64,000 nucleotides of DNA from Thermoanaerobaculia bacterium (GTDB lineage: Bacteria > Acidobacteriota > Thermoanaerobaculia > Multivoradales > UBA5704), in contig JBBSBW010000006.1 in assembly GCA_038250865.1 (NCBI GenBank), positions 26,424-90,423 on the forward strand, written 5' to 3'. Each line of letters begins with the position of its first letter. Positions within the stretch are counted from its first letter, which is position 1. Below the pieces are notes generated by a model that saw only the letters and a list, made by a program, of their open reading frames with translations, did not search any database and had not been told where the DNA came from. The position numbers were made by a program, and so were the translations under genes. Shown here one piece after another: positions 24,578 to 59,954 of the stretch.

Positions 24578-26407
24578 ATGACCGTTGACGATTCCGCCCG
24601 CCCAGGGCTTCACGCATCGCGCGACAGGCTGGCCGACTTCAGCACCGACCGCCGGGTTCTCGTGCTGGCCGGCCTGGCGGCGCTGATCGGGTTGCTCGCG
24701 GCCTTCGTCGCCTCCGCGTTGGTCTGGTTGATCGCCGTCATCACCAACCTCGCCTACTACCAGCGCTTTTCGTCGCACTTCACGTCGCCGGCAGGCAACA
24801 CTCTTGGCTATTGGGCCGTGCTCGTTCCCGTTGTCGGCGGCCTGGTGATCGGCTTCATGGCGCGCTACGGCTCGGAGAAGATTCGAGGCCATGGAATCCC
24901 CGAGGCCTTGGAAGCCATCCTCATCGGGCGCAGCCGGGTCGAGCCGAAGGTCGCGCTGCTCAAGCCGGTCTCGTCCGCGATCTCCATCGGCACCGGCGGG
25001 CCGTTCGGCGCCGAAGGCCCGATCATCATGACCGGGGGCGCCGTGGGCTCCCTGGTGGCACAGCTCTTTCACCTGTCGTCCGCGGAACGCAAGACCTTGC
25101 TGGTCGCAGGTGCCGCCGCGGGTATGGCCGCCATTTTCGCGACGCCGATGGCGGCGGTGTTGCTCGCGGTGGAGTTGCTGCTTTTCGAGTGGAAGCCGCG
25201 GAGCTTCATTCCGGTCGCCGTGGCCTCCGTCATCGCGGCGCTCGTCCGGGTGCCGCTCCTGGGCGCGGGACCGATCTTTCCCGTTCCCGCGCACGCCGCG
25301 CTGGGCGCCGAGGCGATCGGCTTCGCGGTTCTCGTCGGCCTCGCGGCGGGACTGGCATCGGGTCTGCTGACCGCGCTCGTCTATGCTTTCGAGGATCTTT
25401 TCGCCAAGCTCCCGCTGCACTGGATGTGGTGGCCGATCCTCGGGGGGCTCGCGGTCGGCATCGGCGGCTTGCTCGACCCGCGCGTATTGGGCGTGGGGTA
25501 CGACACCATCCAGGACCTCCTCGGCGGCCATCTCGTAGGCGGCTCGGCGGCGATGCTGCTGTTGCTCAAGGCGGTGGTCTGGTCCGTGGCTCTGGGCTCG
25601 GGCACGTCGGGAGGCGTGCTCGCGCCTCTGCTCATCATGGGCGGCGGCTTGGGCGCTCTCGAATCGTCGCTCCTGCCGGTGGGCGACGCCGGCCTTTGGG
25701 CCATGGTCAGCATGTCCGCGATGATGGGCGGAACGATGCGCTCGCCATTGACGGCGATTCTTTTCGCCGCCGAGCTGACCCACGACTGGAACGTCTTGCC
25801 GGCCCTGTTGGTGGGTTCGGTGGCCGCGCACGGCGTGACCGTCCTGCTGCTCCGTCGCTCGATTCTGACCGAGAAAATCGCCCGCCGCGGCCTTCACCTG
25901 GTGCGCGAATACAGCGTGGACCCTTTCGAAGTGCATCGCATCGGCGAGGTCATGGACAGGAACCTGGTCACGATTCCAGAATCGATGACCGTCGGAGAGC
26001 TGGCGGCGCAGATCGCCGCCGGCAATTCCGCGCTCGGGGACCGTCAGGGCATCCCGATCCTTGATGGGGAGGGGGCGTTGTCCGGAATCATCACGCGCAG
26101 CGATCTCATGCGGGCATTGGAGGACGACCAAGGAAGGGGCGCGAGCGTATTGGACGCCGGGACCCGAAACCTCATCGTCGCCTTTCCGGACGAACTCCTG
26201 CGAGACGCGGTCGGGCGGATGCTCGGAAACGACATCGGCCGGCTGCCAATCGTCGCTCGCGACGCCCCTCGGCGGCTGGTGGGTTATCTGGGCCGGGCCG
26301 GAATCATGCGGGCCCGCGTGCGCTTGCACGAGGAGGAAAACCTGCGCGAGCGCGGTCAGCGCGCGAGCGTCAGCTCCTTGACCGACACCCGTTTGGGCTC
26401 GGGGTAA
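24578..26407 (+). CDS. ClC-family chloride/anion channel or H+/anion exchanger with C-terminal CBS pair
   Basis: ClC selectivity-filter motifs GHGIPE and GTGGPFGAEGP, about 10-12 TM helices, two CBS domains at the C-terminus. Confidence 0.9.
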   Translation: MTVDDSARPGLHASRDRLADFSTDRRVLVLAGLAALIGLLAAFVASALVWLIAVITNLAYYQRFSSHFTSPAGNTLGYWAVLVPVVGGLVIGFMARYGSEKIRGHGIPEALEAILIGRSRVEPKVALLKPVSSAISIGTGGPFGAEGPIIMTGGAVGSLVAQLFHLSSAERKTLLVAGAAAGMAAIFATPMAAVLLAVELLLFEWKPRSFIPVAVASVIAALVRVPLLGAGPIFPVPAHAALGAEAIGFAVLVGLAAGLASGLLTALVYAFEDLFAKLPLHWMWWPILGGLAVGIGGLLDPRVLGVGYDTIQDLLGGHLVGGSAAMLLLLKAVVWSVALGSGTSGGVLAPLLIMGGGLGALESSLLPVGDAGLWAMVSMSAMMGGTMRSPLTAILFAAELTHDWNVLPALLVGSVAAHGVTVLLLRRSILTEKIARRGLHLVREYSVDPFEVHRIGEVMDRNLVTIPESMTVGELAAQIAAGNSALGDRQGIPILDGEGALSGIITRSDLMRALEDDQGRGASVLDAGTRNLIVAFPDELLRDAVGRMLGNDIGRLPIVARDAPRRLVGYLGRAGIMRARVRLHEEENLRERGQRASVSSLTDTRLGSG

Positions 26408-28806
26408 GGGACGGTTTCGCCGCGGATCGCGCTCCAGAGGATGCGGTTGAACAGGTCGTCGTCCGAGGCGTCCGGGATGTCCAGGTTGAGCCGGGCCGAG
26501 GCTTGCGCGGCGGGGCCGGCGGCGGGGTTCAGCTCGTCGAGCGGCACCGGGGGAACGAGGGGGTGGTAGGGGGTGAGGTCCGCCTCGGTGCCGAAGATCT
26601 CGCGCAGCGGCCGGCCGTAGTGGTCGAACTGCGAGAGGTTTCCGAGGTGGAGGATCTCCTCGATCGTCGCCAGTACGTCGGTCGTATTGACGAAACGGTG
26701 GCTGACCCCTCCCTTGTTGTAGGCCGAGATCGCGAGCATCACGCTGCGGTGGGAGTCGACGTGATCGGGTCCCGCCTGCGCGTCGTCTTCGAGCGCGAAG
26801 ATCACCGTGTTCTTCCAGAACGGGCTCGCCGAGAGCGCTTCGACGATCCGGCCGAGCGCGAGGTCGTTGTCCGCCATGTGGGCGCGCGGCGTCATCTGCC
26901 CCGGCCGGGCGCCCGAGGTGTGGTCGCTCGGCAGGTGGAGAATCTGGAGCGCCGGCATCTTGCCCGCCACGACGAAGCCGTTGAAGTCGCGCAGCCAGAC
27001 CGCCAGCCGTTTCTGATCGGGGATCGTCATGTCGAACGCCGGATAGTCGGGGCTGGTGTAGGGGCGCAAGGCCGCCTTGGTCGAGCGGTAGGTGACGGGG
27101 TTTGAATCCTTCACCGGCTCGGCGTACTCGCCGTAGACGCGCAGGCTCAGGTGTTTCGCGATCGCCAGGTTCCACAGGTAACCGCTCGCGGAATCCTCTT
27201 CGTCGCCGTCCTCTTCGCGGCCGGGGCGGCGGTCGGAATAGACCGAGGAAACCGTCTTTTCGGTGAAATCGGTGACGTAGGCGGCGGTCGACCAGGGGTG
27301 CCCCTGGGAGCTGACCTCGGCGTTGACGAAGAATCGGTCGAACAGGCCGAAGCGCTCGGCGAGCGCATGGTGGTTGGGCGAGACCTCGCGCGGGAAGAAC
27401 AGGAGCGAGGTATCGCCGTCGCCTTGGGGCAGATCGCCGAAGATCTGGTCGTAGGTGCGGTTTTCCTTGACGATGTAGATCACGTGCTCGAAGGGGGGAT
27501 AGGCGGCGGCCGAACGGGTGCGATCCCAGCCGTTCGCGCGGGTTACCCTTGCCGTGAGCGCGGGCAGGTCGCTTAGCGCCGCTTCGGGGATCACCGAGAG
27601 CGCGCCGTTCAACTGGCCGAGGGTGTAGTCGTGGGATCCCTTGATGAGTTTGTCCGGAGGCTGCTGCATACCGCGGTTCGGCCCGGTACCGCGCCCTTTG
27701 GCGTCGATCACTAGCAGGTCGCCGCGGTCGGCGAGCACCGCCGTCGGGTACCAGCCGACCGGAATCCGCCCGGCGAGCTTGTCCGTGTTGCCCTTGGCCT
27801 TCTTCGTCGCCGAGAGACCGGCGACCCCCGACGTGCGGGAAGACAGATCGAAAACGGCGACGGCGTTCGCGTCGGCCTCGGCGACGAACAGCCGTCGGCC
27901 GTCTTTTGAAAACGCGAGCGCATTGGGCGTCGAGCCCTCGTGCGGACCGGCCGGCGGCGGATCGAGGAGCGTCGCGATCACCTTTCGGCGCGCCGTATCG
28001 ACCACGGCCACCCGGTCGGTGCTCGCCGAGGCGACGAACAGGCGCGTGCCGCTCGGATTCAAGAGGAGGGCCGAGGGGTGGCGGCCGACGGCGACCGAAC
28101 CCGCGCTCCGAAGCTTGCCGTCTTTGCCCGGACGGAAGATCGCGACGCCGTCTCCCCCCCAGGCCGAAACGTAGACGGCACCGCTCGGCGCCACCGCGAC
28201 GGCGTAGGGGTAGAGCCCCGTGGCCGGCCGTTCGAGCACCTTGCCGGTCGCGGCATCGAGGACGGCGAGAGTATCCGAGAGGTTTTCGGCGACGTAGAGC
28301 CGGGCGCCGTCGGGTGAGATCGCGAGACCCGCGGCGTAGCGGGTGGCATCTTTCCCTTCGGCCTTCTCCGCCAGGACGAACGGCGGCAGCGCTTTCGCAC
28401 TTTGGCCGTCCCAGGCGTAGCGATAGACGACGTCCGCGTCGCCACCGGAGGTGTAGAGCGTCTTGCCATCCTTAGAAAACGCGAGACCGAGAAACGCCGC
28501 CGCCTGGGGAAGCGTCTGCAAGACAGCGCCGGAGCGGCGATCGACCACCTGGATGCCCTGCTCGCGCCAGCCGCTCGACAACACGATCAACCGCTCGCCG
28601 CCCGGGGCGAGGAGGGCGTTGATCGGCAGGTTGCCCAGATCGTACAGCTCGCCCGCCGGATCGAGCTGCGCCCCGGTGGGCAGGCGCGCGATGTCGGGTG
28701 GGTCGGGTGGGGTAATGGGCGGCGTCCCGTCAGCGACCGCCGGGGCAAACACTGCACCGAGGAAAAAGGCGAAAGCGAGCGGGCGGAGGTTGTCTCGGAT
28801 CGGCAT
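26356..28806 (-). CDS. Secreted fusion protein: N-terminal YncE/YVTN-type beta-propeller plus C-terminal phosphoesterase (PlcN/AcpA family)
   Basis: Signal peptide, repeated blade motifs (LYVxxxxxDxVAVxD, six or more), then the phosphoesterase-family motif YIVKENRTYDQIFGDL...HPWSTAAYVTDFTEK. The 3' end overlaps the convergent ClC gene by about 50 bp. Confidence 0.75.
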   Translation of the reverse strand: MPIRDNLRPLAFAFFLGAVFAPAVADGTPPITPPDPPDIARLPTGAQLDPAGELYDLGNLPINALLAPGGERLIVLSSGWREQGIQVVDRRSGAVLQTLPQAAAFLGLAFSKDGKTLYTSGGDADVVYRYAWDGQSAKALPPFVLAEKAEGKDATRYAAGLAISPDGARLYVAENLSDTLAVLDAATGKVLERPATGLYPYAVAVAPSGAVYVSAWGGDGVAIFRPGKDGKLRSAGSVAVGRHPSALLLNPSGTRLFVASASTDRVAVVDTARRKVIATLLDPPPAGPHEGSTPNALAFSKDGRRLFVAEADANAVAVFDLSSRTSGVAGLSATKKAKGNTDKLAGRIPVGWYPTAVLADRGDLLVIDAKGRGTGPNRGMQQPPDKLIKGSHDYTLGQLNGALSVIPEAALSDLPALTARVTRANGWDRTRSAAAYPPFEHVIYIVKENRTYDQIFGDLPQGDGDTSLLFFPREVSPNHHALAERFGLFDRFFVNAEVSSQGHPWSTAAYVTDFTEKTVSSVYSDRRPGREEDGDEEDSASGYLWNLAIAKHLSLRVYGEYAEPVKDSNPVTYRSTKAALRPYTSPDYPAFDMTIPDQKRLAVWLRDFNGFVVAGKMPALQILHLPSDHTSGARPGQMTPRAHMADNDLALGRIVEALSASPFWKNTVIFALEDDAQAGPDHVDSHRSVMLAISAYNKGGVSHRFVNTTDVLATIEEILHLGNLSQFDHYGRPLREIFGTEADLTPYHPLVPPVPLDELNPAAGPAAQASARLNLDIPDASDDDLFNRILWSAIRGETVPYPEPKRVSVKELTLAR

Positions 28807-28860: not shown

Positions 28861-29928
28861 TCACTCCCGCCGATCCGTGCGGCCCCACCGCCACCAGGAG
28901 TGGACCATGCCCAACGCCGTTGCGGACCATGCCAGCAACGCCACCGGCAAGGTGGCGCGAGCGAGACCGGCGAGCGGTGCCATGGGAAGCGCCGCGGCGA
29001 GCTGCCAGGTGGCGGCGGCGTACATACCCAGCGGGAAGACCATCGCCCAATATTGTGGGTCGTAGGTAAGTGCGTACCGGCGCCAGAGGTGCCGCCAGGC
29101 GCCGAGAAGCAATAAAAGCGGAATCCACCAAGTGCCCGTCGCCCAGAAGAAAAGGGTGAAACCCCGCAGAAACGGCGCGAGATCGGAGACCAGCGGCGAG
29201 CGGTGGGCAACGAGCAACAACGTCGCGCCGGCAAGGGTTGAGATCGCCACCGCTCCCATGTTGATCCAGTAGGGCGGCGTGAGGGCGGCGGTCTCCAACT
29301 CGAGAAACGTGAAGCGATAGAAGATCAGCGTGATGATCGACAGATAGAGCATGCAACCGATCAAAAAGAAGACCAACGCGCCAAAGAGCGTCGCCGCCGC
29401 CGGCCATCCGAACGGATCCACCAGGCCGGCGCCCAAAATCGCGACGGATTGCGTGGACACCGTGGCCAGGAGCCAGGCACCGTTGATGCCCTGGCCGAGC
29501 GTCGGTTTCTTTTGCCGCACGATGACGGCGAGAAAGAACGAGTACATCACCAGCGCCCACAGACCGATCCCAACCGCGAAGAAGAACTCGGCGGCGCCTC
29601 GCCAGGAAGCGACGCGCAGACACTGGCTGCCGAGGACGTTCGTCGCCGCCACCAGGGTGAAGTACCCCGAGCCTCGGGCGTGATCGCCTAGATCTTCGAG
29701 CATCCGCCGGGGAAACGCGATCAACCGAGCGAGCGTCAGCGCCAGGAGGACCGCGTAGAAGACGAGGTTTAACCCGAGCAGCGGCCGGGCGATTCCTGGA
29801 AAGCCGAGGAGTTGGCAGGCGATTGAGACGATGCCCGTCGCCATCACCAGGGCGAAGTAACCCGGGAAGAGATTGGCGAGCGCTTGGCCGGCGCGACCGT
29901 GCGGCGGCTGATTCCTGTGCCAACTCAC
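28861..29928 (-). CDS. TehA/Mae1/SLAC1-family (TDT) anion transporter
   Basis: 10-TM protein with N-terminal LANLFPGYFALVMATGIVSIA, characteristic of the tellurite-resistance/C4-dicarboxylate transporter family. Confidence 0.8.
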   Translation of the reverse strand: MSWHRNQPPHGRAGQALANLFPGYFALVMATGIVSIACQLLGFPGIARPLLGLNLVFYAVLLALTLARLIAFPRRMLEDLGDHARGSGYFTLVAATNVLGSQCLRVASWRGAAEFFFAVGIGLWALVMYSFFLAVIVRQKKPTLGQGINGAWLLATVSTQSVAILGAGLVDPFGWPAAATLFGALVFFLIGCMLYLSIITLIFYRFTFLELETAALTPPYWINMGAVAISTLAGATLLLVAHRSPLVSDLAPFLRGFTLFFWATGTWWIPLLLLLGAWRHLWRRYALTYDPQYWAMVFPLGMYAAATWQLAAALPMAPLAGLARATLPVALLAWSATALGMVHSWWRWGRTDRRE

Positions 29929-29949: not shown

Positions 29950-30177
29950 TCAGCGGTCGAGCTGGTAGACATAGCGAAGCAGGCCGAGGATGAGCAGTAA
30001 GCAGGCCGCGCTGGCGGCCGCCGCGGGGAGCGCCGCGGTGTGATCGCCGCCGAGATAGGCGTTCATCGTCGCGGTGAAAAGCCAGAGCTGCAGCACCACG
30101 ATCAACACCACGATCGCGATGATGCCTGAAAGGATCGGGGTCTTCTGCGCCCGCGTGAAGCGCCGTCGGCCGTTCAC
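29950..30177 (-). CDS. Small two-TM membrane protein (75 aa)
   Basis: GTG start overlapping the Rieske stop (GTGA); two hydrophobic helices; no family recognised. Confidence 0.5.
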   Translation of the reverse strand: MNGRRRFTRAQKTPILSGIIAIVVLIVVLQLWLFTATMNAYLGGDHTAALPAAAASAACLLLILGLLRYVYQLDR

Positions 30178-30719
30178 GAGGTTCGCTCCGTGACCCCGAC
30201 GGCAAAGATCCGGTCACCGCGCACCTTGAGCTCGACTTTCGGCAGCGGCCGGCGCGGCGGGCCGGAGATCGTCCGCCCCGTTGCGAGGTCGAAGTTTCCG
30301 TTGTGGCAGGGGCAGTGGAATCGACCTTGCGCCACTTGCGGGATGACCGGGCAGGAGAGGTGTGTGCATCGTTGATCGAACGCCACCACCTCCTGCTCGC
30401 TCAAGCGCACCAAAAGCTTCGGCTGGCCCGGACCTGGATAGTCGAACTGCAGCGTCCCCCCGACCGGCAGATCCGAGAGACGGGCCACCAAGAGTTCGCG
30501 CGAATCGGCGCTCCCTCCGAACCAGCTCTTGGCGAGAATCCAGGCCTGGCCGGCGACGAAGGCGAAGCTGGTGAGGGCGAGGAACTTGGTAAATTCGCGA
30601 CGCGCGACGTAGTGGTCCTCCGGAACATCAATAGGAAAGTCCCGCCGCCACTTCGGCTGTTCTTCCATCGGCCGGCCGTCCGGGGCGATCGTGAGCTCGT
30701 CGGGGTCGCTGCGGCTCAT
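30174..30719 (-). CDS. Rieske [2Fe-2S] protein with N-terminal membrane anchor
   Basis: The start is reassigned to MSRSDPDEL (ATGA overlap with the ferredoxin stop). TM segment [17 protein letters not shown]; Rieske boxes CTHLSCPV and CPCHNGNF. Confidence 0.85.
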
Positions 30720-31360
30720 GCGGAGCCCTCCTCGAAGTAATTCGCGAGCAAGGGATCGAGCGGCGGGGCGGTCGAGCCGCCCGGCTCTAACGGTGCCGTA
30801 ATCTGCAGCAGGTTCTCCGCGAACGACTTCGGCACGACCATTTTCACCTTGGTGGTCACCCGCTGGGCGCCGAAGCGGAACGTGTCGACCGGTTGCGAAT
30901 TGGGGCGCAGGCTCTCGAACTCTTCGCGGGTGCCGAAGTAGAGCGCTTGGCTCGGGCAGACCGAGGCGCACATCGGCTTCAAGCCTTGCGAAGTGCGGTC
31001 GTAGCACATGTCGCACTTCATCATCAGGTTGGCTTGGTCATGCATCTTCGGAACCCCGAACGGGCAGGCCAGCACGCAGTTGTTGCAGGCGATGCAGCGC
31101 GCTTTGCGGGCCGTCTGTACGACCCCGTCCTCGGTGCGCTTGATCGCGTCGGCCGGACAGACTTCGGCGCAGGTCGGCTGGTCGCAGTGCATGCAGATCA
31201 CCGGAACCGTCTGCGTTGAGCGCGAGCGGTCGATGAAGTCGAGCTGGATCATCGACAGCCCTTTGTGGGTGTCGCACTCCGAGCAGGCCTGGACGCAGGC
31301 GTTGCAGCCGATGCAGCGCGCCGGGTCGATGTAGAAGTTGTAGTCGGCGGGTACCGGCAT
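30716..31360 (-). CDS. Four-cluster [4Fe-4S] ferredoxin-type electron-transfer subunit (DmsB/FdhB/NrfC-like)
   Basis: Four CxxCxxCxxxCP-type motifs ([41 protein letters not shown]...CASVCP). Confidence 0.85.
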
Positions 31361-31400: not shown

Positions 31401-33635
31401 TCACGCGACAGCCTCGCGTATTTCTTCGGCGGTCGCCACGCGGAGTCGTACCGCGCAGGCCTTGAACTCCGGGATTTTCGAGATCGGATCCTGGGCGGAG
31501 ATCGTGAGACGGTTGACGCTCCGCTTGCCCGGCCAATGGTAGGGCACGAAAATCGTATCGGGCCGAATGGTCGCGACGACCCGCGCCTTGAGCGTCAGGC
31601 GGCCGCGCCGCGTCTCGGCCGTCGCCCACGCGCCATCGCCGATCGAGAGCTTCTCGGCGAGTCGAGGATGGACCTCAATGAACGGCTCGGGATCCATGTC
31701 GAGCAGCGGGCCGATCCGTCGCGTCTGGGTGCCTGACAAGAACTGGCCGACCAGGCGGCCGGTGGTGAGGATGATCGGAAACTCTGCGTCGATCTCCTCG
31801 GCGGGCGGCGCATAGGTTGCGACGTTGAATCGTGCCTTTCCGTCGGGAAAGTAGTACGGGCCCTTGCCCTGTGCGACGACGTTCCACGACTCCGGCTCAA
31901 AAAGGCGGGGCGTGCCGGCATGGTCCGCGCTCGGACAGGGCCAGAAGACCCCCTGCTGGCGGTCGATTTTTTCCCAGGTGATCCCCGAGTAATCGGCGAT
32001 ACCCCCTTTGGAGGCGACGCGGAGTTCCTCGAAGATGGCGCGCGGCCCGTCAAACGTGAACCCGTGCTCTCGATCGATCGCGCGGGCAAGATCCTGAATG
32101 ATCCGCCAGTCTTCGCGCGCCTCGCCCGGGCAGGCGATCGCCTTGTTGATCTTGATCACCCGTCCTTCGGTGGTCGTCACCGTACCCTCATCCTCCTCGT
32201 GAAGAGAGCCGGGAAGGACGATGTCGGCATATCGCGCCGTTTCGCTCAGGAAAAAGTCGATCGCCACGAAGAAGTCGAGCTTACCCAGCATCTCCCTGAC
32301 GAAGTCGCTGTCCGGCAGGGAGACGACGGGGTTGAAGCAGAGCGAGAGGAGCCCCTTGATCTCGCCGCGCTCGATGCGGCGAAAGATCTCGTAGGCATCG
32401 ACGCCGGGCTGTGGCATGTCTTCGACCGGCATACCCCAGACGCCGGCGATGTAGGAGCGGGCCTCCGGGTCGGCAAGCTTGCGTCCGCCCGGGAGTTGAT
32501 CGCACTTTTGACCGTGCTCGCGTCCTCCCTGCCCGTTGCCCTGGCCGGTGATCGTGGCGTAGCCGCAGAACTCCCTGCCGATCCGTCCCGAGGCCAGCAC
32601 CATGTTGATCGCGCCGAGCACGTTCTGCACACCGTGGCTCGAGTGCTCGATGCCGCGGGCATGCATCAGAAAACTGGTTTTCGCCGTTCCCCACCACTCC
32701 GCGGCCTGACGGATCGCCGACTCGGTGATGCCGGTGACCGAGGCGGTCCTTTCCGGCGTCCACTCGGCGACGTGACGGGCCAGCTCGTCGAAGCCGACGG
32801 TCTGATGCGCCACGAACTCGCGGTCGACCCAGCCGTTTTCGATCATCAGGTGCAAGATGCCATTGAAGAGAGCGACATCTCGGCCCGGCTTGATCGGGAG
32901 GAACAGGTCGCAGGTGCGAGCGATCGGCGTGAGGCGCGGATCGACAACGATCACTTTCGCACCGCGCTCGCGGGCCTGCCAGATGTAGTCCGTGGTGATC
33001 GGCGCGCATTCGGCGACGTTGGCCCCCGAGATCCAGATCAGCTCGGCGCCGAGGATGTCCGACCAGGGGTTCGCGGCACGGTCGACGCCGAACGCCTTGC
33101 TGTTCCCTGCGCCCGCCGACACCATGCAGAGACGCCCGTTGTAGTCGATGTTCGACGTGCCGAGCGCCATATGGGCGAACTTACCGACGAGATAGGCCTT
33201 CTCCGTGGTCAGGGAGGCGCCCGAGAGGACCGCCATGGCGTCGCGGCCGTAACGCTCCTGAATGCGCCGGATTTCGCCGGCCGTCCGTTCGATCGCCTGC
33301 CCGTACTCGATCGATCGGAAGCCGCCCGGCGATCTTTCGTCGCGTTCGTACGCGGTGAGCAGGCGATCGGGATGGGCGCCTTGCAGGTAGCGCTTGATCC
33401 CTTTCGGACAGAGCATGCCGCGATTGAACGGGAAGTCGTAACGCGGCTCGAAGCCGACGACCTCCTCATCCTTGACTTTGAGTCGGATGCCGCATTGCTG
33501 GCCGCAGAAGCAGCAGTGCGTATCGACGATCCTGTCGGGCACGACGCCGGTATCGAGGCGTGTGCCGCTCGAATAGGCCGCGTGCGGGCCGAACGGATCG
33601 TCGACCGGCGGATCTAAAGCGGTCAGCCTAGCCAT
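31401..33635 (-). CDS. Molybdopterin (Mo-bisPGD) oxidoreductase catalytic subunit, assimilatory-nitrate-reductase-like (NasA/NarB family), cytoplasmic
   Basis: The start is reassigned to MARLTALD. N-terminal 4Fe-4S motif CCFCGQQC...GMLCPKG, MopB core and C-terminal molybdopterin-binding barrel, no Tat signal. Confidence 0.8.
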
Positions 33636-34800
33636 GGAAGTTCTCCGCATCATCCGTGCCGAGCGGTCCTTCGCCGAGGCCGGGATTGACGTAGCTCGGT
33701 GCCGCCCCGGGCGCCACCAGCACACCACCGCGCACGCCGCTCCAGGCGAAACCCTGTGCGGTGGCCAGCAACGCCCGTCGGCATGGGGGGCAGACCCATT
33801 GATAGTGGCCGACAGATCCCGCGAGGGAGTAATCGAAGCCGAGACGTCGCTCGACCTCGATCAGGTCCTCGACATGCATCTTCGACGTAAAGCCGTGGCC
33901 ACAGCGGCGGCAGATCGCTGCTTCCTCGTCGCGGCCGACCTCTTTGTAGAAGCGCACCGCGAGTTGCGCCGGACGCTGGAAGATATGGAAGAACTTGCCG
34001 AACGGCAGCCAGAGAAAGGTGAAGATCACCGTCACCGCGTGGAGGATGGCCAGGAAGTCGTAGGCGTATCCGTGCATCCACGTATAGCTCGCGGTGAGCA
34101 TGAGGCCGGTCAGGCTGACCGCGAAAAGTAGGAACAGAGGGAGAAAATCCTCGATAAAACTCTGTAGCGCCGCCGCGCCCTCTTCACGCATCCGGCGGCG
34201 CATGGCGAGCATCACACCGGCGATCACCAGGAAGGATGCCCAGACCAGACCGTGAAAGATCAGAAAGCCGAAGAGTGACCCGCTGGGAAAGGTGAACACC
34301 GGCAAGCCGAGGGCGAAGACGCGGTAGGTTTCTGGGCTTCCCGGCACCGACTCGAACATGAACCAGCCGAAGACGAGGGGAAAGGTAATCGCGACGGCGA
34401 GCAGGCAGCCCCAGAGAATCAACAGGTGCGTGAGTCCGCGGAGCCGGCCGCGCGCCCAGATGAAGCGGTTGAGCGCGATGTCGGAAACGGCATGCAGGAG
34501 ACCGTGACCGAAGTTGCGCAGGCGCCGCTCGCCGGAGCCGCGGCGGAAGACGACCTGCCACCCTCGCCGCCAGTAAAGCGCGGTGGGGGGCCGCTCCAAC
34601 CACATCGCGTAGCGGTAGGTGATCCCGAAGGTCGCAAAGAGGATCGAGAAGGTATAGGCCACCAGCGCGGCGTCGAAATGCGCCAGATTCCTGGAGCCGC
34701 CGATGATGGCGGCTCCCACCAAGCCCGTGACCAAAAGCCCCCAGGCCCCGGCTCGGCGAGCCTCAGGGGCGATGCCCAATCGTCGGATCTGTTGGCTCAC
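33628..34800 (-). CDS. Polytopic membrane protein (NarI/cytochrome-b-like, His-rich TM helices) fused to a C-terminal rubredoxin-like CxxCG...WxCPxC domain
   Basis: GTG start after an AAGGAGGAGG RBS. About 8 TM helices with conserved His ([32 protein letters not shown]). C-terminus CRRCGHGF...(28 aa)...WVCPPC. Stop lies 4 nt from the MopB start. Confidence 0.6.
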
Positions 34801-34877
34801 TCGGTCCCCTCCTCCTTTCTCTCCGAAGACTCGAAGGGTTGCCGTCAGGGTGTGCGTGCAGGGCGCAAGCCGCGCGC

Positions 34878-35552
34878 TCAGGCAGCCGCAAGCCGGGGGA
34901 AGAGAACATTGTTCTCGAGATGAATGTGGTGATGCAGATCCGTTTCGAGCGCCTCCAATCCGTGCCAGAGCGCGCTCCAGGTGTTGCAGGCGCCGTCCGG
35001 AAGCCGGAAGTCGTCCGTCAGACCGCGAATCTCCACCAGCCGGTTTCCCACCTCGGTATGGTCGTCGCGGAATGCGGCGACGGCCGGGCCGGCTTCGGCG
35101 CCGCGTTCGAGGATCGGCGGGAAGAGTTCGGCCTCCTCGCGGTCCATGTGTTGCGCGAGGTCGGCTTGGAGCGCCAGGTACGCCGTCTGGAGCGCGGGCA
35201 GACGCACCGGCTCGCGCTCGCCATGGACCCGGGCGACCTTGCGAACCATCGCTTCGAGGCGCGGAAGCTCCTCGCGAAGAGGGGCGTGGTAGGCGCTCAG
35301 GATGTGCCGCACCAGATCGTCGGGGGAGGCCTCGTTCCAGTTCTCGGCGGGGGCAGAGGTGGCGGCGAGGGATTCGTGGATTTCGGCCACCAAAGCCTCT
35401 GGGGTGAAACCACGTCGCTCGCAAATCTCGGCCAGCGAGCGTCCCCCGCCGCAGCAGAAGTCAATGCCGTGCCGAGCGAAAACGCGGGTGGCGAGGGGAT
35501 GGCGGGCGGCGATTTCGCCGACCCGCGATTGGGGAGTGATGTCGAGGTCCAT
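34878..35552 (-). CDS. Repair-of-iron-centres di-iron protein (RIC/YtfE/ScdA family)
   Basis: ScdA_N motif GIDFCCGGG and C-terminal hemerythrin-like His/Glu ligands (HHxxE, HIHLEN). Confidence 0.8.
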
Positions 35553-35581
35553 AGGGATCAAGTTCCTTTCTCTCAGGTCCA

Positions 35582-36277
35582 TCAGGTCGATCGAATGGAT
35601 CGGCCGTTGGCCGCATGGTGCGCCCGGTCGCCCTGCGGTGAACTCGCGACGGCGTAGGTGCAAGAGGCATCGCCGTCCGGCATGAACTGAATGCGATCGA
35701 GCGGTCTTCCCAGCAGCTCTTCGGCGAGCTTCATCTCGGCGCGGCAGGGAAGATGGGTGACGGCGACCAACTCGCGCAGCGGGCAGTGGCAGAGACGAAG
35801 GCGGATCGGCTCCCCGCCCTTAAGTTCCGCTTCGGCGAGGTAGCCTTCCGTCGACAGCGAGCGCGCGATCTCGTTCAGACGCTCGCCCACCTCAAGTCCT
35901 TCCATGCGTTGCGCGAGGCGCTCTCTTTTGAGGTGGGTGCGCGCCGCGAAGAACTCCTCAAGAAGCTCCGGGTGCTCGCTTTGGAGAAGGTAGCGGGCAA
36001 GCTCGGCGAGCATTTCGCCCTCGCGGCGCGGAAAGAGCGCCTCACCCTGGGCGCTCAGCCGATAGACCACTTGCGGGCGACCGGGGCCCTGCCGACGCAC
36101 ACCGGCTCGTTCGATCAAGTGTTGAGCGGTGAGCGATTCGAGGTGGCTTCTCACCGTCTCGCGAGCCACCTCCATCCCGGTCTCGACCTCGGCCAGAGTG
36201 ACCTCGCCGCGCCGCTTCAAAAGCTCGAGCAGCGTCCGCTGGCTCGCGCCAAGCCCGGGTCCGTAGAGGTCGTCCAT
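35582..36277 (-). CDS. Winged-HTH transcriptional regulator with C-terminal Cys-rich (CHC...C...C) putative sensory domain
   Basis: wHTH (LLELLKRRGEVTLAEVETGMEVARETVRSHLESLT...GRPQVVYRLS), C-terminal LRLCHCPL...LPC...SCTY. It is the first gene of the Mo-enzyme operon. The start is ambiguous (36277 or 36343). Confidence 0.55.
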   Translation of the reverse strand: MDDLYGPGLGASQRTLLELLKRRGEVTLAEVETGMEVARETVRSHLESLTAQHLIERAGVRRQGPGRPQVVYRLSAQGEALFPRREGEMLAELARYLLQSEHPELLEEFFAARTHLKRERLAQRMEGLEVGERLNEIARSLSTEGYLAEAELKGGEPIRLRLCHCPLRELVAVTHLPCRAEMKLAEELLGRPLDRIQFMPDGDASCTYAVASSPQGDRAHHAANGRSIRST

Positions 36278-36444
36278 GGGGGCACCGTACTCTTCCGCCT
36301 CTCGGCTTGTCAAGGTTGTTGTGAGAAAAACCATGAAATCCATCGATCCAGGAGAGTCACGAAGCACAGTCGGCGAATTTCTAGGGGTCGGGTATGCTCC
36401 CCGGCCCGACGCCGGCATCGAGGCGCCCAGGAGCACGAGGTCCC

Positions 36445-41654: not shown

Positions 41655-41998
41655 GGGGGCGTACCGGTTTCGACGGGGAACAAAGCGGTGCGGGGGTTGC
41701 GTGTCGAGGTCGACTCGTAAAATCGATTTTTTAACTGCGAACGACAACTTCGCTCTCGCGGCCTAAACGGCTGTGACGTCAATAGGGGGGCTCTGACCCG
41801 CTGCACCCCTAAAGACGCCGACAATGCGGGTCAATGGGTCCGGAGGCCTCGCGACGGACCCAGATACTAGCGAGGATAACTGCCGCGCGCGGCGCCTTCA
41901 CTCGAAGCGCGGCGGTGAAAAAGAAGTGAGGGCTACGCACGTAGATGCCACCGCGACGCGTTTTCCGGACGTGGGTTCGACTCCCACCGCCTCCACCA
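41655..41998 (+). ncRNA. ssrA: tmRNA (SsrA), tag peptide ANDNFALAA
   Basis: 5' GGGGGCGUACCGGUUUCGACGGGG tRNA-like acceptor/D analogue, resume-codon ORF gcg aac gac aac ttc gct ctc gcg gcc taa (41737-41766), 3' T-arm GGGUUCGACUCCCACC and ...CUCCACCA. Confidence 0.9.
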
Positions 41999-56505: not shown

Positions 56506-56595
56506 TGGCGGAGAGGGTGGGATTCGAACCCACGGACCGATTTCCCGGTCAACGGTTTTCGAGACCGTCCCATTCGACCGCTCTGGCACCTCTCC
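56506..56595 (-). tRNA. tRNA-Ser (anticodon CGA)
   Basis: Cloverleaf: acceptor GGAGAGG, anticodon loop CUCGAAA, long variable arm, T-arm GGTTCGAATCC, encoded CCA. Confidence 0.85.
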
Positions 56596-56607
56596 AGTTA
56601 CTACTTT

Positions 56608-56698
56608 TGGCGGTGAGGGTGGGATTCGAACCCACGGTAGAGTTGCCCCTACACACGCTTTCCAAGCGTGCTCCTTAAGCCACTCGGACACCTCACCC
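56608..56698 (-). tRNA. tRNA-Ser (anticodon GGA)
   Basis: Acceptor GGGTGAGG, anticodon loop UUGGAAA, long variable arm, T-arm GGTTCGAATCC, encoded CCA. Confidence 0.85.
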
Positions 56699-59841: not shown

Positions 59842-59954
59842 GACGAAGGGTTCGGGTCCTGTGCATCGATCCTCACCGAACCTCGTCAGGCCCGGAAGGG
59901 AGCAGCGATAAGGTTGGGCGACCGAGTGCCGCAGATCAACCGGAACCCTTCGTC
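59842..59954 (+). ncRNA. ffs: Signal recognition particle RNA (small 4.5S type, ffs)
   Basis: Domain IV core GUCAGGCCCGGAAGGGAGCAGC. A terminal helix is formed by GACGAAGGGTTCGG (59842-59855) pairing with CGGAACCCTTCGTC (59941-59954). Canonical position immediately upstream of dnaX. Confidence 0.7.

Follow-up and report, generated by a model that had tools for sequence, protein, structure and literature searches.

A membrane-bound nitrate reductase of unusual composition is probably encoded in the 64,000-nucleotide stretch of DNA analyzed here (the window; contig JBBSBW010000006.1 of a Thermoanaerobaculia bacterium, positions 26,424 to 90,423). The gene at its center, at 33628..34800 on the minus strand, specifies a membrane protein that joins a NarI-like, cytochrome-b-type helical bundle to a C-terminal domain carrying four cysteines (Cys4 domain). 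We propose, with reasonable though far from complete confidence, that this protein is the membrane anchor of a five-subunit enzyme that oxidizes quinol, reduces nitrate at a cytoplasmic active site of the Nas type and uses its Cys4 tail for docking. The five genes are:

33628..34800, minus strand: NarI-fold, cytochrome-b-type membrane anchor, 390 residues, assigned from an AlphaFold2 (AF2) model and profile searches
31401..33635, minus strand: catalytic subunit predicted to carry molybdenum bis(pyranopterin guanine dinucleotide) (Mo-bisPGD), Nas/NarB clade, 744 residues, assigned from NCBIfam and PDB searches
30716..31360, minus strand: four-cluster ferredoxin (Fer4_11), with four cysteine groups expected to hold four [4Fe-4S] clusters
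30174..30722, minus strand: Rieske [2Fe-2S] subunit, 182 residues, overlapping the ferredoxin stop codon
29950..30177, minus strand: DUF6755 protein, 75 residues, two transmembrane (TM) helices, Pfam score 94.2 bits against a cut-off of 27

The anchor gene is real, and its motifs are conserved beyond chance. At a G+C content of ~65%, the window abounds in spurious open reading frames (ORFs), from which real genes were told by third-position GC. The minus-strand ORF extends over 33628..35424, but the true start is the GTG at 34800, with a Shine-Dalgarno sequence, AAGGAGGAGG, just 5' of it, and the stop is the TAG at 33630..33628. A first-pass annotation of the DNA had quoted several motifs, which we locate at residues 97-105 (FGHGLLHAV), 181-187 (IFHGLVW), 270-277 (FFHIFQRP) and 297-304 (CRRCGHGF), with two more at 241-256 and 335-344. 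The gap between its two cysteine strings measures 30 residues and not the 28 given there, and 36 residues lie between the inner cysteines C300 and C337. The family comprises more than 7000 homologs, in 1190 clusters at 50% identity, and the closest genome record is a metagenome-assembled genome of Thermoanaerobaculia (Acidobacteriota; locus L001), with 98% protein identity. Conservation was counted in 79 orthologs of several phyla, taken from 80 genome loci, and in 37-49 diverse homologs.

The AF2 model of the anchor (predicted local distance difference test score (pLDDT) 88.5; predicted template modeling score (pTM) 0.81) contains six TM helices, at about residues 12-35, 44-69, 119-143, 184-205, 215-241 and 247-267. 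Two cytoplasmic helices separate TM2 from TM3, a three-stranded β-sheet (residues 147-172) lies on the outer face between TM3 and TM4, and TM6 runs on as a long helix into the small cytoplasmic Cys4 domain. The helical bundle can be superimposed on NarI. A profile of the family finds E. coli NarI in the PDB with an E-value of 2e-4, and hhalign against NarI of the K-12 genome returns 93.7% probability (E 2e-7), placing residues 186-288 on NarI helices III-V. The bundle had been described as NarI/cytochrome-b-like from the letters alone, and both the modeled fold and the hhalign result agree. The NCBIfam models matched, in their membrane portions, are TcuB, QmoC, TmcC and DsrM, all far under their cut-offs, and no bc-type cytochrome b family is found among Pfam matches at E<=1. 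As judged from these sequence comparisons, the protein is a remote member of the NarI superfamily that falls outside the curated Pfam family.

Both termini are predicted to lie in the cytoplasm because of three concordant signals. First, Lys and Arg together average 10.2 in the loop at residues 70-118 versus 1.2 in the loop at residues 144-175. Second, natural fusions of a NarK-family MFS protein with the cytochrome b exist in three independent clusters at 50% identity. Third, P0122, the fusion examined in detail, has 12 TM helices ahead of the six of the cytochrome. Database entries in which the cytochrome b seems joined to the Mo subunit (P0200, P0231 and P0240) look frameshifted or read through the overlapping stop-start, and we left them unused as evidence for a common compartment.

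NCBI names a number of unfused homologs 'MFS transporter' (P0014, P0020, P0034, P0107 and others), and this name would suggest a non-redox transporter, an identity that we find scarcely credible. The anchor has no MFS match in Pfam or NCBIfam, MFS domains being present only in the fusion relatives; the profile searches that might have assigned the TM region to a transporter family, the outcome that the first-pass annotation had named as fatal to its reading, led to the NarI superfamily instead. No MFS domain is present in the unfused homologs themselves, and the name is very probably an annotation error, most simply and probably transferred from the fusions P0122, P0174 and P0198. Some homologs bear the JGI label 'nitrate reductase gamma subunit'.

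Four histidines stand out as candidate heme ligands, and their codons are:

34426..34428, minus strand: His125, TM3 near the cytoplasmic face, conserved in 79/79 orthologs, matched to NarI His56 by helix order
34252..34254, minus strand: His183 (FHGLVW), outer end of TM4, conserved in 79/79 cassette orthologs
34039..34041, minus strand: His254, TM6, invariant in all alignments, aligned with NarI His187
33985..33987, minus strand: His272 (FFHIFQRP), conserved in 79/79 orthologs, aligned with NarI His205

All four are present in every one of the 79 orthologs, and H125, H254 and H272 are also invariant or nearly so in the diverse homologs. In NarI, His56 and His205 hold the proximal heme, and His187 is a ligand of the distal heme. 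H254 and H272 keep the 18-residue spacing of NarI His187 and His205 and sit in the same PF(S/G)(R/K)xxH motif, and we infer from helix order that H125 is the counterpart of NarI His56. A proximal heme held by H125 and H272 is well supported by this homology. H183 falls, by extrapolation, about three residues before the hhalign block and close to NarI residue 92, where helix III begins; it is a candidate for the second ligand of a distal heme, together with H254, or for a quinol-site residue. A second (distal) heme is likely, though uncertain, in this ortholog group.

The earlier proposal that conserved His pairs in successive TM helices ligate heme b was right in part: H183, H254 and H272 are invariant, while H99, H103 and H243 are unconserved (H103 is Arg in 63 and H243 is Lys or Arg in 65 of the 79 orthologs), and the FGHGLLH stretch is a predicted cytoplasmic helix outside the TM helices. 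The list also omitted the invariant H125 (LTHLLILWG). At the start of the outer sheet, residue 148 (34357-34359, minus strand) is His in 60/79 orthologs, Met in the protein studied here, and Ser, Tyr, Ala or Phe elsewhere. His and Met are both able to ligate heme iron.

The molybdoenzyme, ferredoxin and Rieske neighbors mentioned by the first-pass annotation are all found in the cassette that the anchor gene heads. A Mo-bisPGD subunit, a four-cluster protein and a membrane anchor are encoded together, which is the architecture of a complex iron-sulfur molybdoenzyme. The ATG of the Mo subunit gene overlaps the stop codon of the anchor gene (ATGGCTAG). Neither the Mo subunit nor the ferredoxin has an export signal of its own: a twin-arginine translocation (Tat) motif is absent from the Mo subunit here and from 66/69 orthologs, and the ferredoxin is devoid of both signal peptide and TM helices. 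The GTG start of the DUF6755 gene overlaps the Rieske stop codon, and the protein has a conserved outer loop, TATMNAYLGG. In 66/66 loci with a tblastn match, DUF6755 directly follows the Rieske gene; it is a probable subunit of the complex.

The cassette is widespread. Relatives were found in at least 596 species in a scan of one genome per species, and the best 80 loci belong to Acidobacteriota, Chloroflexota (including a Herpetosiphon strain), Gemmatimonadota, Planctomycetota, Myxococcota, Rhodothermales and Verrucomicrobiota. Across at least seven phyla, essentially all of the 80 loci with a long enough contig keep the order cytochrome b, Mo, ferredoxin, Rieske, DUF6755. A search for the fusion of TM bundle and Cys4 domain in other genomes had been recommended from the start; four Cys and four His are invariant in the 79 orthologs. 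Genes that recur nearby encode RIC, NnrS-DUF1858, Rrf2-type and Crp/Fnr-type regulators, Usp, cupin, SLAC1 and CLC proteins.

Paralogous cassettes extend this picture. One whose anchor is 36% identical carries cytochrome b, Mo, ferredoxin and Rieske genes as far as the contig end, directly after nrtB, nrtC, nrtD, a GAF gene and a fused nirBD; the nrtC/D nitrate ABC ATPase and NirB models score above curated cut-offs in this locus. Another paralog adjoins nrfHA, cytochrome c maturation genes, two MFS genes and moa/mob genes. A 28%-identical paralog is followed by Mo, ferredoxin, ParA-like, Rieske and small ORFs. In locus L082 (5497-6228, plus strand), a relative of 46% G+C, a ParA/Mrp-like (CbiA) ATPase gene lies between the ferredoxin and Rieske genes, and its product may be an Fe-S cluster carrier for assembly of the complex. 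In locus L084 (6728-7048, plus strand), that of a paralog without three of the cysteines, the genes are ferredoxin, Rieske, DUF6755, a CMD-domain protein and cytochrome b, with nrfHA and moa/mob adjoining; no Mo subunit gene is present within the fetched locus.

These contexts point to nitrate as the substrate and to a cytoplasmic active site. The case for nitrate is built on the best NCBIfam model of the Mo subunit, NasC (762 bits), on the Met that follows its Mo-ligand Cys, and on the NarK fusions and the nrtBCD-nirBD, nrfHA, RIC and NnrS contexts; the case for cytoplasmic reduction is built on the importers (NarK fusions and NrtBCD) and on the cytoplasmic NirBD. The substrate could instead be formate, chlorate, selenate, tellurite or similar, with the cytochrome as anchor of another oxidoreductase and the TehA/SLAC1 protein serving oxyanion resistance. 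NasC does not reach its NCBIfam equivalog cut-off of 1100, formate dehydrogenases of the FdhF type are the nearest relatives of known structure for the Mo subunit, and the SLAC1/TehA family includes tellurite-resistance proteins. We nevertheless consider another substrate very unlikely: every aligned formate dehydrogenase has Cys or Sec followed by His where the Mo subunit has Cys-Met, on which ground formate dehydrogenase identity was rejected, and the nitrate, nitrite and NO contexts listed above, to which Rrf2 can be added, all speak for nitrate.

The Rieske subunit begins with a 40-residue tail, highly conserved in 66 orthologs (PDGRPxxEQPxWRxDFPIDWPxDxY), followed by an RRxFxK twin-arginine motif and one moderately hydrophobic TM anchor. 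Its cluster-binding boxes are CTHLSC and CPCH, and CTHL(S/G)C and CPCH in orthologs; conservation in the 66 orthologs reaches at least 95% for the RR motif as well as for the CTHL.C and CPCH boxes, as expected for an anchored Rieske protein. Both extra cysteines that form a disulfide in the bc1 and b6f Rieske proteins are present, and the best solved relatives are PetC3, the Thermus Rieske protein, b6f PetC and AioB. On this evidence the Rieske domain is probably Tat-inserted on the outer face, opposite the Cys4 tail and the signal-less Mo and ferredoxin subunits. The anchor had been thought to hand electrons to the Rieske protein within the cytoplasmic chain of the molybdoenzyme; this is unlikely because the Tat anchor and the disulfide cysteines probably put that protein on the opposite face of the membrane.

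The same Rieske signal could carry the Mo and ferredoxin subunits into the periplasm as hitch-hikers, giving a Nap-like periplasmic nitrate reductase for which the cytochrome b would be the quinol dehydrogenase, its cytoplasmic Cys4 tail being regulatory or vestigial. AioA is exported by hitch-hiking with AioB. The conserved RRxFxK motif with its hydrophobic anchor would suit this arrangement, the closest Rieske relatives, AioB included, are periplasmic or lumenal, the Mo and ferredoxin subunits lack signals of their own, as hitch-hikers do, and the Mo subunit also resembles the monomeric NapA of Desulfovibrio (310 bits). Four considerations make us regard export as decidedly improbable. First, the NarK fusions, NrtBCD with cytoplasmic NirBD, and the adjacency of RIC imply reduction in the cytoplasm. 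Second, the cytoplasmic loops and tail of the anchor are its most conserved, Arg-rich surfaces, and the tail resembles a docking module for an FdhF-type subunit. Third, known anchors of the NarI superfamily (NarGHI and EtfD) dock their partners on the cytoplasmic face. Fourth, the conserved 40-residue tail ahead of the Rieske twin arginines suggests a cytoplasmic, partner-bound segment.

We now turn to the Cys4 domain, defined from full-length and domain-only AF2 models, Foldseek and a profile search:

33730..33921, minus strand: Cys4 domain, residues 294-357, cytoplasmic

C297, C300, C337 and C340 are invariant (79/79 orthologs), as are their neighbors H332, Y333 and R342. In the model, the C297-x2-C300 knuckle lies in a β-hairpin, a helix follows, and C337-P-x-C340 opens the long helix 338-357; the domain-only model (pLDDT 87.7) shows the same arrangement. 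This predicted fold is treble-clef-like and unlike rubredoxin. The knuckles CRRCG and CPPCR, read in the first-pass annotation as a rubredoxin-type iron site, are indeed present, but such knuckles also occur in zinc ribbons and treble clefs. No rubredoxin (PF00301) appears among the 50 Foldseek matches listed, the 60 PDB sequence matches listed (E<=1) or the Pfam matches at E<=1; with the second Cys pair at a helix N-terminus, the rubredoxin assignment was rejected. The top Foldseek match of the domain is HycF of E. coli formate hydrogenlyase (7z0s_F; probability 1.0, query-normalized TM-score (TMq) 0.59, 55 columns). HycF residues 116-162 are also the only PDB sequence match listed that covers both knuckles (hmmsearch E 2.7e-3, a modest support). 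Matches to C2H2 zinc fingers add up recurrent weak hits on the first knuckle alone and were judged non-homologous.

In HycF, Cys117, Cys120, Cys155 and Cys158 bind one metal ion, tentatively iron, which lies 17 Å from the nearest cluster, a distance that argues against conduction, and within a basic patch in contact with FdhF (PMC9474812). Two remote paralogs of the anchor, P0130 and P0137, retain just one of the four Cys. P0137 has a Mo subunit gene directly downstream; P0130 lies beside ferredoxin, Rieske and DUF6755 genes, with no Mo gene in the fetched locus. Because of the HycF-like fold, the off-path position of the HycF site and the loss of cysteines in these paralogs, we read the Cys4 tail as a structural or docking metal site, with a redox role as a minority possibility.

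In the model of the first-pass annotation, the tail was a rubredoxin-like Fe(Cys)4 site acting as an obligatory one-electron relay from the proximal heme to the ferredoxin and Mo subunits. The invariance of the four Cys and of H332, Y333 and R342 is compatible with such a function, the domain directly follows the helix that bears the proximal-heme ligand H272, and the metal of the homologous HycF site, tentatively iron, has been discussed as possibly redox-active (PMC9474812). An obligatory relay is unlikely all the same, given the treble-clef-like fold, the off-pathway position of the HycF site, and the persistence of P0130 and P0137 beside partner genes after the loss of three Cys. Moreover, electron transfer from heme bP of NarI to NarH needs no such relay (PDB 1Q16).

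Based on the docking reading of the tail and a cytoplasmic catalytic site, the enzyme would work as follows. Menaquinol, the quinol presumed for these phyla, would be oxidized at the outer face. H125 and H272 would hold a heme b near the cytoplasmic face, in the manner of NarI His56 and His205, and H254, probably with H183, would hold a second heme near the outer face. The Rieske and DUF6755 subunits would pack against the cytochrome and probably take part in quinol oxidation, perhaps together with the outer sheet; the Rieske electron might return to the b-heme chain or leave to a periplasmic acceptor. The heme or hemes would carry electrons across the membrane, from where they would pass through the four [4Fe-4S] clusters of the ferredoxin subunit to the Mo-bisPGD of the Nas/NarB-type subunit, which would turn nitrate into nitrite in the cytoplasm. 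The Cys4 tail would bind one metal ion (Zn or Fe) and, with the Arg-rich cytoplasmic loops, form the docking surface for the Mo and ferredoxin subunits, with no obligatory relay. Overall, a NarGHI-like redox loop would be assembled from different parts.

Several points weigh against this picture and set its limits. The Pfam model Nitrate_red_gam (PF02665) gives 21.9 bits and does not reach its gathering cut-off of 22.9. The helix II pair of NarI, His56/His66, 10 residues apart, is not reproduced, for ten residues past H125 the orthologs have Ala (74/79) or Gly (5/79); H183 is Asn in many remote paralogs, some of which also lack a His at position 148; and the top structural match of the anchor, EtfD, holds one heme only. 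Heme, quinone and metal are invisible in a sequence or an apo-model. Fold, conservation, topology, gene order and the nitrate-linked surroundings are what the analysis shows, whereas heme number and ligation, quinol as the donor, the direction of electron flow, the kind of metal, subunit contacts and the part played by the Rieske protein are inferred. We know of no established role for an outer-face Rieske protein in a NarI-type anchor. Hitch-hiking export of the Mo and ferredoxin subunits would make the proposed orientation wrong, and the redox activity considered for the HycF ion (PMC9474812) would bear on the function of the tail.

A bolder extension is that the complex represents a third class of quinol-linked nitrate reductase beside Nar and Nap, in which the Rieske protein, the NarI-fold cytochrome and DUF6755 form a hybrid outer site resembling the quinol-oxidizing (Qo) site, electron transfer across the membrane to the cytoplasmic Nas-type subunit is electrogenic, and many genes counted as assimilatory 'nasA' in metagenomes of soil and water belong to this membrane-bound, energy-conserving class. 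The Rieske/cytochrome b module would then have been invented independently, and both assimilation and dissimilation would be served. We put this forward tentatively, as an idea more open to doubt than the assignment of the anchor.

Comparison with known systems clarifies which parts are familiar. The anchor shares with E. coli NarI (PDB 1Q16 chain C; PF02665) the helix V ligand pair (H254/H272 versus H187/H205) within a PFxK/RxxHI motif, a His where the preceding ligand helix approaches the cytoplasm (H125 versus H56), and a C-terminus in the cytoplasm; each serves as the anchor of a four-cluster protein and a cytoplasm-facing Mo-bisPGD nitrate reductase. Unlike NarI, it has an extra N-terminal TM helix (six TM helices, N-terminus inside), a 45-residue Arg-rich cytoplasmic insertion, the three-stranded outer sheet and the C-terminal Cys4 domain, and it lacks an equivalent of His66, which His183 on TM4 may replace. 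The partner is also distinct: a Cys-ligated, Nas/NarB-type subunit of 744 residues in place of the Asp-ligated NarG of 1246 residues, and the cassette adds Rieske and DUF6755 subunits and is without a narJ gene.

The top structural match of the anchor is mycobacterial EtfD (PDB 9OJN), which has five TM helices, one heme (His78/His241) and a menaquinone site beside it, and reduces menaquinone with electrons from the electron-transfer flavoprotein (PMC13083937). EtfD is fused to [4Fe-4S] and CCG domains and is without a Cys4 domain, a Rieske partner or a Mo partner. HycF (PDB 7Z0S chain F) offers the nearest parallel to the tail: it has the same C-x2-C...C-x2-C pattern, with 34 intervening residues versus 36 here, a similar predicted fold and a basic residue next to the first knuckle, and it adjoins a molybdoenzyme of the FdhF/Nas clade. 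In HycF, however, the module sits on a soluble, NuoI-like protein with two [4Fe-4S] clusters and not on a membrane cytochrome, and its contact with the Mo subunit has been shown, whereas here contact is suggested by gene adjacency and translational coupling.

Like the bc1 and b6f complexes, the cassette encodes a Tat-anchored Rieske protein with disulfide cysteines along with a heme-b membrane protein and small TM subunits; unlike them, its cytochrome has the NarI fold, and there is no cytochrome c1 or f. In haloarchaea, a Rieske/cytochrome b pair (NarB/NarC) is encoded with nitrate reductase, but that enzyme is a Tat-exported NarGH, as opposed to the cytoplasmic Nas type predicted here. The catalytic subunit is of the same clade as NasC and NarB, and NasG of Paracoccus and AioB are precedents for a Rieske partner of a Mo enzyme from this clade. 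Known Nas enzymes, by contrast, are soluble and take their electrons from NADH or ferredoxin; NasG, soluble and NirD-like, lacks the disulfide and the anchor; and arsenite oxidase (AioAB) is periplasmic and has neither a four-cluster protein nor a cytochrome b. No characterized protein with this combination of domains is present in the PDB, Pfam, NCBIfam or the searchable literature (subscription-only papers lie outside that search), in agreement with the first-pass annotation, which knew of none; the same sources yielded no account of a complex with this set of subunits. Although hundreds of bacteria from soil and water carry the cassette, it has apparently never been studied.

If the assignment is correct, several dominant phyla of soil and sediment would reduce nitrate through an unstudied membrane complex, uniting a NarI-type anchor, Nas-type catalysis, a bc-type Rieske protein and a HycF-like Cys4 module that are otherwise known only separately. 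Energy conservation by a redox loop, which is impossible for soluble Nas enzymes, would become possible, and a Rieske protein paired with a cytochrome of the NarI fold would offer a fresh case for testing ideas on the evolution of quinol-oxidation sites. Gene-based inventories of the nitrogen cycle, in which the Mo subunit now counts as assimilatory 'nasA' and the anchor as an 'MFS transporter', would need revision. Whatever the mechanism, DUF6755 gains a genomic context.

Three further genes close to the cassette encode proteins with counterparts near related cassettes:

34878..35552, minus strand: RIC/ScdA/YtfE di-iron Fe-S repair protein (TIGR03652, 227.9 bits against a cut-off of 204.7)
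28861..29928, minus strand: SLAC1/TehA-family anion channel or transporter, after the cassette
24578..26407, plus strand: CLC-family anion channel or antiporter with CBS domains

The RIC gene lies directly upstream of the anchor gene on the same strand and is near the cassette in at least 13 loci. In about half of the loci, a SLAC1-like gene comes next after the cassette; its product is probably a carrier of nitrate or nitrite. The CLC gene may be associated with the cassette, as one is also nearby in L001, L006, L023, L048 and L075. Directly downstream of the SLAC1-like gene, 26356-28806 (minus strand) encodes an 816-residue protein with β-propeller (lactonase/SGL/YncE-like) and phosphoesterase-family domains; since it does not recur in related loci, it probably lies outside the cassette.

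Upstream, the ~840-nucleotide gap at 35553-36393, between the likely RIC start (ATG 35552) and lepA (36394, plus strand), contains no ORF passing the codon-bias filter and is without a match in Rfam. An FNR/Dnr-like site with two mismatches is found at 35548-35561, with the half-site TTGAT on the minus strand; it lies too near the RIC start for a class II site, and similar sites abound in the window. Predictions of sigma-70 promoters and of terminators were uninformative. Antisense to the Mo subunit gene, a 565-residue ORF at 31920-33617 (plus strand) is a typical spurious high-GC ORF. Elsewhere, the window contains a transfer-messenger RNA at 41655-41998 (plus strand, 170.9 bits), a small signal recognition particle RNA at 59850-59948 (plus strand, 68.3 bits) and two adjacent tRNA genes at 56509-56697 (minus strand).

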